Assembly: GCF_046105845.1 (NCBI RefSeq)
Contig: NZ_CP151004.1
Strand: one strand, 5' to 3'
Origin: Escherichia coli
GTDB lineage: Bacteria; Pseudomonadota; Gammaproteobacteria; Enterobacterales; Enterobacteriaceae
DNA length: 64,000 bases
Part shown: positions 1 through 3,255 of the stretch, piece after piece
Layout: each line of letters starts with the position of its first letter
Position numbering within the stretch: position 1 is the stretch's first letter
Program-made: the position numbers and the translations under genes
Notes under the pieces: model-generated
Told to the model about the DNA's origin: nothing
The model's database searches: none
The model's input: only the letters and a program-made list of their open reading frames with translations

Positions 1-463
<463 letters not shown>

Positions 464-1636
464 TTATTGTCCTGCGAGTTGCTGAAGGGCTGTGATGACG
501 CGGTCGGCATCGGCGGTAGTCATATCCGGGAACAGCGGCAACGAACAGATGCGTTCGCTATTCCATTCGGTATTCGGTAACGACAGCGTGGGAAAACGCT
601 CGCGATAATATTTTTGTGTGTGAGCGGCGCGGAAATGTAACCCGGTACCAATACCTCTTTCTTTTAACGCTTCCATCAACGCATCGCGACTGATACCACA
701 ACGTTGTTCATCGACACGAATAATAAACAGATGCCAGGCGTGAACGTGCGGCCAGGCGGGAAGGCTTAATGGCTGAAAGGGGAGAGCTGCCAGTGCTTGC
801 TGATATTGCTGGGCAATTTCGCGCCGACGGGTGTTGAGGTGCTCTAATTTGGCTAACTGGGTCAGGGCAATCGCGGCGTTAATATCGGTCAGATTATACT
901 TATAGCCCGGCGTTAAGACTTCAGCTTGCGGTGCACGGCCCCAGGTTTGTCTGTCATAGGCATCGACACCCAGACCGTGAAATTTTAGCATCCGTAGCTG
1001 GCGGGCAAGGTTTTCATTATCAGTAACAATCAGGCCACCTTCCGCACAGGTAATATTTTTGATGGCGTGAAACGAAAAAATAGCGGTACCTTTTGCGCCA
1101 ATATGTCGGCCTTTGTAATACGTACCGACGGCATGGGCAGCATCTTCGATAACTGCGATGCCGTAACGTTCGCCAATGGCGCGAATGGCGTCAATATCTG
1201 CTGGCGCACCGGCATAATGCACCGGAATGATGGCTTTAGTGCGTGGCGTAATGGCTGACTCGATCGCTTCAGGCGTGACCATCAGCGTATCGTGGTCGAC
1301 ATCCACCATTACCGGCGTTGCACCCAACAAGGAAATCATATTGAGGGTTGAAACCCAGGTCAGGGAAGGCGTAATCACTTCATCGCCCTTGCCAATTTCC
1401 AACGCCATTAGCGTGATATGCATTCCGGCGGTGGCTGAATTGACCGCGATGGCATGCTGATTTCCCGTCAACTGGCAAAAGGCTTGTTCAAGCGCCTGAT
1501 TCTTCGGACCGGTTGTGATCCAACCGGATTCGAGAACCTCTTTAACTGCAGCGAGTTCCTCCACGCCCATTGCTGGTCGCGAAAAAGGCAAAAATTCTGA
1601 CATTGTTTTTCCTTCCGCCATTGAATACCTGTCCAC
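464..1636 (-). CDS. arnB: UDP-4-amino-4-deoxy-L-arabinose--oxoglutarate aminotransferase (DegT/DnrJ/EryC1 PLP family)
   Basis: 390-aa ORF; PLP-lysine context [13 protein letters not shown]; operon position upstream of arnC. Confidence 0.93.
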
Positions 1637-1701
1637 TTATATTTGCTATAAAGAGTGTTGTGTATATTTTGCCATTTGGAGCGAAATTTTAAGGATAGAA
1701 T

Positions 1702-1718
1702 ATTAACTTAACCTTAAG
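1702..1718 (-). promoter_or_regulatory. Putative PmrA(BasR) box upstream of arnB
   Basis: Minus strand reads CTTAAG-GTTAA-GTTAAT, two hexamer half-sites spaced 5 nt (YTTAAK-N5-YTTAAK-like), 66-82 nt upstream of the arnB start codon in the arnB/ais divergent region. Confidence 0.55.
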
Positions 1719-1910
1719 AAACTAATATTAGACGTAAATATTGAAATTTTTATATTTTTTCTTATTTAGGCTTTGCATTTGGCAAAATTTTGAGGCATTT
1801 TGCCGGCATCGCAGGATTTTTAATATTACACCAACTGCTAATTATCGCCAGAAATGTCGCTCAATTTCACGGTAATTGTCTGGTTGCGCTTGTCTATAGG
1901 TGGAGTTTAC

Positions 1911-2513
1911 GTGTTAGCTTTTTGCCGCTCTTCGTTGAAGTCAAAAAAATATTTCATCATTTTACTGGCGCTCGCTGCAATTGCCGGACTGGGTACTCAT
2001 GCCGCCTGGAGTAGCAATGGTTTGCCACGTATCGACAATAAAACGCTGGCCAGACTGGCACAGCAGCATCCGGTTGTCGTTTTGTTTCGCCATGCTGAAC
2101 GTTGCGATCGTTCAACCAACCAATGCTTGTCAGATAAAACAGGTATTACGGTTAAAGGTACCCAGGATGCCCGTGAACTGGGCAACGCTTTTAGTGCTGA
2201 TATCCCTGATTTCGATCTTTATTCCAGTAATACCGTCCGGACCATTCAGTCGGCGACCTGGTTTTCAGCGGGTAAAAAGCTGACGGTAGATAAACGACTT
2301 CTTCAGTGCGGTAATGAGATTTATAGTGCAATTAAGGACTTACAAAGCAAAGCGCCTGATAAAAATATCGTTATTTTCACCCATAATCATTGCCTGACAT
2401 ATATTGCTAAAGATAAGCGTGATGCGACATTTAAACCTGATTATCTGGATGGTTTAGTCATGCATGTGGAAAAAGGCAAAGTTTATCTGGATGGGGAATT
2501 CGTTAACCACTAA
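1911..2513 (+). CDS. ais: Histidine-phosphatase-like protein Ais (LPS core heptose(II)-phosphate phosphatase)
   Basis: GTG start at 1911 preceded by GGAG; 200 aa beginning [23 protein letters not shown] histidine-phosphatase motif; divergent from arnB. Confidence 0.85.
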
Positions 2514-2977: not shown

Positions 2978-3255
2978 GGGGATATTCCTTATAAATAAAA
3001 AGAAACCATGAGAATACGGTAACTCAGAAATATGTGAAAGTGACAGTAATCTCTTTTGCGATGATAACTGCACTTATTATTATTTTTGTGTGTATCGATA
3101 AAGTGTGTTTATTTTTTCGGCGTTTAATTATTTAAGAAGTATTTAGTTACAATAAGTGACTAGATCCCTTTTTTCGCTCATTGAATCCTCTGTGCCAGGC
3201 AGTACAATCCCGCAGCTTTGGGAATTTTGATTTATTGCTTGTGGGAGAGGGGAAA

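Follow-up and report, generated by a model that had tools for sequence, protein, structure and literature searches.

The 17-bp element found on the minus strand at positions 1702–1718 of the 64,000-nucleotide stretch of Escherichia coli DNA analysed here (the window) is, in all likelihood, the PmrA/BasR site of the arn promoter and very probably serves the divergent gene ais as well. The box is an already published PmrA/BasR element, which had been correctly recognised from the sequence in the preliminary description, and the region around it is the standard, intact control region of E. coli. Addition of aminoarabinose to lipid A by the products of the arn operon is a main chromosomal route to polymyxin/colistin resistance, and the arn PmrA box is the switch through which pmrAB resistance mutations act. 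How the region controls ais is a more modest question of promoter architecture, which opens no new system.

The two genes flanking the control region are the following, both by RefSeq annotation and profile match:

464–1603, minus strand: arnB (UDP-4-amino-4-deoxy-L-arabinose aminotransferase), first gene of arnBCADTEF
1911–2513, plus strand: ais

The profile matches (NF008658 for ArnB, 739 bits for a cut-off of 631; NF011945 for Ais, 392 bits for a cut-off of 142) bear out the earlier naming of the neighbours as arnB and a divergent ais, and through them the genes downstream of the box are seen to modify LPS or lipid A, as is typical of pmra-box promoters. The ORF list holds a minus-strand ORF of 379–390 aa ending at 464 and a 200-aa plus-strand ORF from a GTG at 1911. 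Regarding arnB, three in-frame starts come into consideration, at 1603 (PGAP/RefSeq, 379 aa), at 1621 (the K-12 ATG, 385 aa) and at 1636 (a GTG, giving the longest ORF). The product from 1603 begins MSEF and its start has AAGGA ahead of it, the product from 1621 begins MAEGK, and both ATGs are kept across genera together with GAAGGAAA between them. The non-coding arnB-ais region thus extends over 1604–1910 (307 bp) with the RefSeq start or 1622–1910 (289 bp) with the K-12 start; the 274 bp from 1637 proposed at first derived from the longest ORF and has to be corrected to one of these lengths. The segment 1400–2200 is matched in 5418 of the 5426 complete E. coli genomes, at 95–99.6% identity and always annotated with ais on one side and arnB on the other. 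The G+C content of the arnB-ais region is 33%, and no Rfam family was found in 1400–2100 at E <= 1.

On the arnB side, the control region comprises these features:

1702–1718, minus strand (arnB sense): PmrA/BasR box 5'-CTTAAG GTTAA GTTAAT-3' (pattern match, conservation and literature)
1718–1713 and 1707–1702, minus strand: distal and proximal half-sites of the box
1701–1692, minus strand: 10-bp spacer ATTCTATCCT between the box and the −10
1686–1691, minus strand: predicted arnB −10 hexamer TAAAAT, exactly 10 bp 3' of the box, a spacing kept across species
1677–1679, minus strand: predicted PmrA-dependent arnB start, placed from the −10 position

In the 64-kb window, CTTAAGNNNNNGTTAAT has a single exact match, at 1702–1718 on the minus strand and hence in the arnB sense, and none in 100 dinucleotide-preserving shuffles (0/100), which confirms the CTTAAG-N5-GTTAAT element noticed from the sequence alone. 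As a direct repeat with a 5-bp gap, CTTAAG-GTTAA-GTTAAT conforms to the YTTAAK/XTTAAY pattern of the pmra-box, with a third TTAA inside the spacer and a sole departure from the consensus, namely the G at position 1 of half-site 2. In the verified Salmonella PmrA boxes, where CTTAAG and XTTAAT stand N5 apart, this position is 'any nucleotide' (PMC3973317); the box has exactly this verified form, which supports its reading as a PmrA site. An identical box lies in K-12 at NC_000913.3 2365813–2365829. In a study of the E. coli arn promoter the same 17-mer is shown as the PmrA site, its consensus being given 'with a slight modification' (PMC10729948), and conservation of the yfbE (arnB) PmrA motif in both E. 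coli and Yersinia has been described (PMC1525208).

The loose consensus YTTAAK-N5-YTTAAK with 1 mismatch allowed is not enriched, as it matches 4 times in the 64-kb window for 3.6 expected. Since the loose motif occurs at chance rate, the significance of the box rests on its context rather than on the motif alone, that is, on its orientation, on the 10-bp spacing to a TAnnnT hexamer and on conservation across species. When a relaxed box, the 10 bp and TAnnnT are combined, a single occurrence remains in the 64 kb, both strands being searched. Elsewhere in the window, TTTAAGAAGTATTTAGT at 3131–3147 (plus strand), upstream of yfaZ, matches the PmrA consensus with 1 mismatch. It fills precisely the 17-bp spacer of the yfaZ promoter, a mapped one with −10 TACAAT and a start at about 3159, which is unlike the PmrA architecture, and the match is at chance level.

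Across Enterobacterales, arnB loci from 80 species were compared, the genera including Escherichia, Salmonella, Citrobacter, Enterobacter, Klebsiella, Raoultella, Kosakonia, Buttiauxella, Pantoea, Erwinia and Dickeya. A forward box is present upstream of arnB in 76 of them, and TAnnnT follows it at exactly 10 bp in 75/80, any other offset being found in at most 3 species. Within E. coli, conservation was scored as the number of the 5426 complete genomes holding an identical copy of each of four 34-mers:

1694–1727: box with its flanks, identical in 5374/5426 (99%)
1728–1761: AT-rich tract beside the box, identical in 5246/5426
1770–1803: block 2, the conserved block treated below with ais, identical in 5389/5426
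1836–1869: control 34-mer nearer ais, identical in 2996/5426 (55%)

With the arnB start taken 7–9 nt after the −10, the box would span about −39 to −23. In other words, and with the start a predicted one, the box in direct orientation takes the place of the −35, the −10 lying 10 bp downstream. The orthologous boxes of Salmonella and Klebsiella have both been footprinted (PMC2565834). At Klebsiella pbgP the PmrA footprint extends from −19 to −44 (PMC2565834), and in the cryo-EM activation complex of PmrA, RNA polymerase and the pbgP promoter the pmra-box replaces the −35 (PMC10570014); the same work describes a box overlapping or replacing the −35 at pbgP, ugd and pmrCAB. The predicted arnB geometry agrees with both the footprint and the complex, and geometry, conservation and literature together support the initial view that the element sits at a position appropriate for activating arn. 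No PhoP box better than 3 mismatches was detected in the control region, in agreement with PMC2565834. Just 3' of the predicted start, CCAAATGG (1671–1678, minus strand) is conserved in Escherichia, its (A)AATG core being kept in Citrobacter and Salmonella; its ATG opens mini-ORFs of 2–9 codons (MAKYTQHSL and a stop in E. coli, MK or MR and a stop elsewhere), and this conservation may merely reflect the initiation region.

Box, spacing and conservation are observed features; for binding and activation, the literature on orthologous or identical sites points to the following mechanism. A phosphorylated PmrA (BasR) dimer would bind 1702–1718 at the arnBCADTEF promoter, its two DNA-binding domains lying head-to-tail on CTTAAG and GTTAAT, 11 bp apart. 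From the place of the −35, about −39 to −23, the box-bound PmrA would recruit and position sigma-70 RNA polymerase at the weak −10 TAAAAT located 10 bp downstream. As polymerase would have to be recruited by PmrA to this weak −10, transcription of the arn operon would be confined to conditions in which PmrB/BasS senses Fe3+, Al3+ or mild acid, or in which PmrA-P is protected by PmrD.

Published experiments bear on both directions of transcription. An arnB-lacZ fusion is raised 31-72-fold in strains with the constitutive alleles basS A20D or basR G53V (PMC8151780). On the other side, ais/pmrG has been used in E. coli as a reporter gene activated by PmrA (PMC3140997), deletion of basSR in APEC lowers ais mRNA 2.64-fold (PMC12419081), and BasR binding to the ais promoter by EMSA is cited in the latter paper. 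Besides, ais, arn, eptA and pmrR change together in ExPEC treated with serum (PMC4145685) and in iron-adapted E. coli B, where ais is co-induced with arn and eptA (PMC13405929). The gene ais belongs to the same BasR regulon as arn; the earlier suggestion that ais may share PmrA-dependent control holds at the level of co-regulation (PMC3140997; PMC12419081), and the reporter-type test put forward with it has essentially been published already, for both directions.

Whether this co-regulation passes through the one box was approached with 14 ais loci, the window included, the extra loci being gathered via Ais homologues. Each has one box, located 120–213 bp upstream of the ais start, so that the divergent pair has a single activator site in the window and in all 14 species; no second box was found in 1604–1910 with up to 2 mismatches on either strand. 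Among the 80 species sampled through ArnB, ais adjoins arnB in only three, namely E. albertii, Salmonella diarizonae and Citrobacter sp. R56; ais was consequently rejected as the usual neighbour of arnB, the divergent pairing being lineage-restricted. The box is also kept beside ais where the neighbour is menE or pmrD instead of arnB, as in Intestinirhabdus alba, C. freundii, C. rodentium, locus L089 and Escherichia L091 (pmrD being the neighbour in I. alba and Escherichia L091), and at such loci the flanks are unalignable and the box is intact. Since no second box is present and the one box has stayed with ais as lineages diverged, ais is most probably controlled from the same single box as arnB.

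Several of these loci deserve a description of their own. In Escherichia L091 (Ais 91% identical), a recent deletion has removed the arn operon from between pmrD and ais (positions 801–1500 of the locus); this arn-less lineage retains the entire control region together with some 100 bp from the 5' end of arnB. In Citrobacter tructae (L087), a single PMT-family gene (PF02366, ArnT-like; 320–1780, minus strand) stands in the place of the arn operon, divergent from ais and behind the same module of box, 10 bp and TACTCT. In I. alba, C. freundii, C. rodentium and L089, the box lies about 120–170 bp upstream of ais with TAnnnT on the side facing away from it, so that a promoter of the arnB type seems to be preserved intact although no arn gene follows it. 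Over the whole set, all 14 loci, the arn-less ones included, have without exception the arnB-side TAnnnT at its 10-bp distance from the box. An extra CTTAAT/CTTAAG hexamer occurs 8 bp (start to start) upstream of half-site 1 in two Salmonella loci and in Citrobacter sp. R56 (L014, L083 and L010); its 8-bp offset differs from the 11-bp period of the box, and it is degenerate in Escherichia (ATTAGT).

Toward ais, two further features and three promoter candidates have been delineated, the latter by a simple −35/−10 weight-matrix scan of the 14 loci:

1719–1769, no strand: AT-rich tract between the box and block 2, at the UP-element position for the arnB promoter and holding ais candidate (i)
1770–1803, plus strand: conserved block 2 GCTTTGCATTTGGCAAAATTTTGAGGCATTTTGC, with GCATTTT invariant in 14 species
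1714–1719 and 1737–1742 or 1739–1744: ais candidate (i), box-proximal, −35 TTAAGA (the outer, palindromic half-site) and −10 AATATT or TATTGA
1773–1778 and 1796–1801: ais candidate (ii), in block 2, −35 TTGCAT, 17-bp spacer, −10 CATTTT
1800–1805 and 1821–1826: ais candidate (iii), 3' of block 2, −35 TTGCCG (from block 2), 15-bp spacer, −10 TAATAT

From the box to the invariant GGCATTTT element, the sequence (1719–1793) has 20% G+C, and this element stands 67 or 77 bp from the box in 12/14 ais loci. An interval of 77 bp separates the end of the box from CATTTT in E. coli, E. marmotae, E. albertii, Escherichia L091, Citrobacter R56 and C. amalonaticus, and one of 67 bp in the two Salmonella, I. 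alba, C. freundii, C. rodentium and L089; Escherichia L092 has 76 bp and C. tructae 64 bp. By comparison, CATTTT stands anywhere between 36 and 119 bp from the ais start in the 14 loci. Such a near-fixed 67/77-bp spacing suggests, at the level of sequence comparison, a coupling of box and block 2 through the DNA. Read toward ais, the box has 2 mismatches, and the hexamer at the 10-bp position is TAGACG in E. coli, which is not a canonical −10; the conserved ais-side element, at 67–77 bp, is far for a class-II activator.

None of the three candidates is compelling. For candidate (i), a −10-like hexamer found 18–25 bp from the box ranks among the top five predictions in 10/14 species, being TATAAT in S. 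diarizonae and I. alba and weak in E. coli; the reversed box would be centred at about −41. Candidate (ii) has its 17-bp spacing in 11/14 species, its −35 is not kept in three Escherichia lineages, and the box centre would fall at about −98. Candidate (iii) recurs in 7/14 species, with a box centre at about −123. On the ais side, and with a geometry deduced from these positions, the box could accordingly be read in reverse at about −41 of the box-proximal promoter or, alternatively, could exert its effect at a promoter within the conserved block 1770–1826, relative to which it would lie at about −90 to −120.

Other readings of this part of the region were tried and discarded. TAGACG-16-TATATT (1729–1756) as the ais promoter is not conserved even in E. 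albertii. Block 2 contains TTTGAG in E. coli where several other species have TTTAAG, and TTTAAG as a PmrA half-site was rejected on this lack of conservation. The hairpin that GGCAAAAT and ATTTTGCC could form in E. coli block 2 loses its pairing in Salmonella and Citrobacter, as judged by eye. A sigma-54 reading of GGCATTTTGC has the wrong spacing, and its sigma-32 reading was dismissed as the RpoH genomic-SELEX peak (PMC5493296) maps elsewhere, inside ais, at about window position 2407 by coordinate conversion. Regarding mapped starts, the supplement of Kim 2012 lists none for ais; the only start it gives here is antisense inside ais, at window position 2312 (minus strand), and is assigned to arnB with a 691-nt leader. 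The Cappable-seq supplement has no entries for the arnB-ais region.

Three other explanations of the box have to be weighed against that of a PmrA/BasR site shared by both genes. The loose consensus at chance rate and the low G+C content of the region would both be compatible with a functionless motif arisen by chance in AT-rich intergenic DNA, yet the probability of this is practically nil: the exact form is missing from all the shuffles, published experiments deal with the same or an orthologous site, and the conservation of the architecture in 75/80 species and of a near-invariant box in the 5426 E. coli genomes rules it out. A different and quite improbable explanation, following the model of PMC10729948, places a QseB/PmrA node at the promoter, with QseB-P as the activator and PmrA on the box occluding arn. 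It draws on the EMSA of that study, where a 60-mer corresponding to window 1739–1680 with 1 mismatch was shifted by QseB-P, and on the constitutive rise of arnB and eptA in a pmrA qseC double deletion (PMC10729948), to which can be added a 1-mismatch match to the QseB consensus GYRACAATWA-N4-TT, GCGATAATTAGCAGTT at 1833–1848 (minus strand). This match, the best to that consensus, nevertheless falls outside the 60-mer, and QseB and PmrA being paralogues, QseB-P may simply bind the PmrA box. Moreover, an activating role of PmrA itself is indicated by the effect of the constitutively active basR/basS alleles on arnB-lacZ (PMC8151780), by the PmrA-dependent activation obtained from the orthologous box in Salmonella and Klebsiella, and by the solved PmrA-RNAP activation complex.

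The least improbable of the three, though still rather unlikely, is that the box serves arnB only, with ais having an independent promoter in 1770–1826 and the BasR effect on it being indirect or exerted via weak non-consensus sites. The orientation of the box and the 10-bp spacing to the −10 suit arnB only, block 2 is kept in 14 species with sigma-70-like hexamers at 17-bp spacing, and the effect of the basSR deletion on ais is modest (2.6-fold). Against this speak the lack of a second box in 1604–1910, the persistence of the box by ais in long-diverged, arn-less Citrobacter and Intestinirhabdus loci with unalignable flanks, the strict 67/77-bp spacing, which argues for DNA-level coupling, and the BasR binding reported for the ais promoter fragment (PMC12419081). 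A box shared by arnB and ais is thus retained as the preferred reading.

How the shared box would act on ais leaves room for a more speculative proposal, namely that one PmrA box works both ways and serves ais through an architecture undescribed for PmrA. This is an unlikely proposal, put forward because an invariant weak promoter that contains GGCATTTT lies at a fixed distance from the box, either 67 or 77 bp, two values that differ by one helical turn, and because box, 10 bp and TAnnnT stay intact in Citrobacter and Intestinirhabdus genomes lacking arnB. PmrA would then act from about −90 to −120 in a manner dependent on the face of the helix, either class-I-like or mediated by bending; alternatively, ais might be activated by the loading of polymerase at the divergent arnB-type promoter, e.g. 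by supercoiling coupling.

Among known systems, the closest is the pbgP (pmrH/arnB)/pmrG region of Salmonella enterica, an orthologous gene pair in the same divergent layout. Its box CTTAATGTTAATTTAAT stands at −115 from the arnB ATG, the same place as in the window, with the same 10-bp spacing to a −10 that reads TAGGGT, and block 2 is present upstream of pmrG. The differences concern the half-sites (CTTAAG and GTTAAT in E. coli, CTTAAT and TTTAAT in Salmonella), the distance from box to block 2 (77 vs. 67 bp) and the extra CTTAAT found 8 bp upstream of the box in Salmonella but degenerate in Escherichia.

At pbgP of Klebsiella pneumoniae, whose PmrA box1 is known from the crystal structure 4S05 and the cryo-EM complex, the box is, as in E. 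coli, a direct repeat with 5-bp spacing that replaces the −35, and in the locus compared here (L037) CTTAATATTATCCTAAG is followed after the same 10 bp by TACATT. Half-site 2 reads CCTAAG, arnB does not have ais as its neighbour, and the Klebsiella promoter also contains a PhoP box and a second start that depends on PhoP (PMC2565834), in contrast to E. coli, which is without a PhoP box. The contacts between PmrA and RNA polymerase are mainly electrostatic, and weakening them raises activity (PMC10570014). Beyond PmrA, the pho-box promoters of PhoB, in the OmpR/PhoB family, offer a wider parallel: like the pmra-box, the pho-box is a tandem direct repeat of 11-bp periodicity lying over the −35 and bound by a head-to-tail dimer, and the −35 is likewise weak or absent, while the recognition sequence and the regulator are different.
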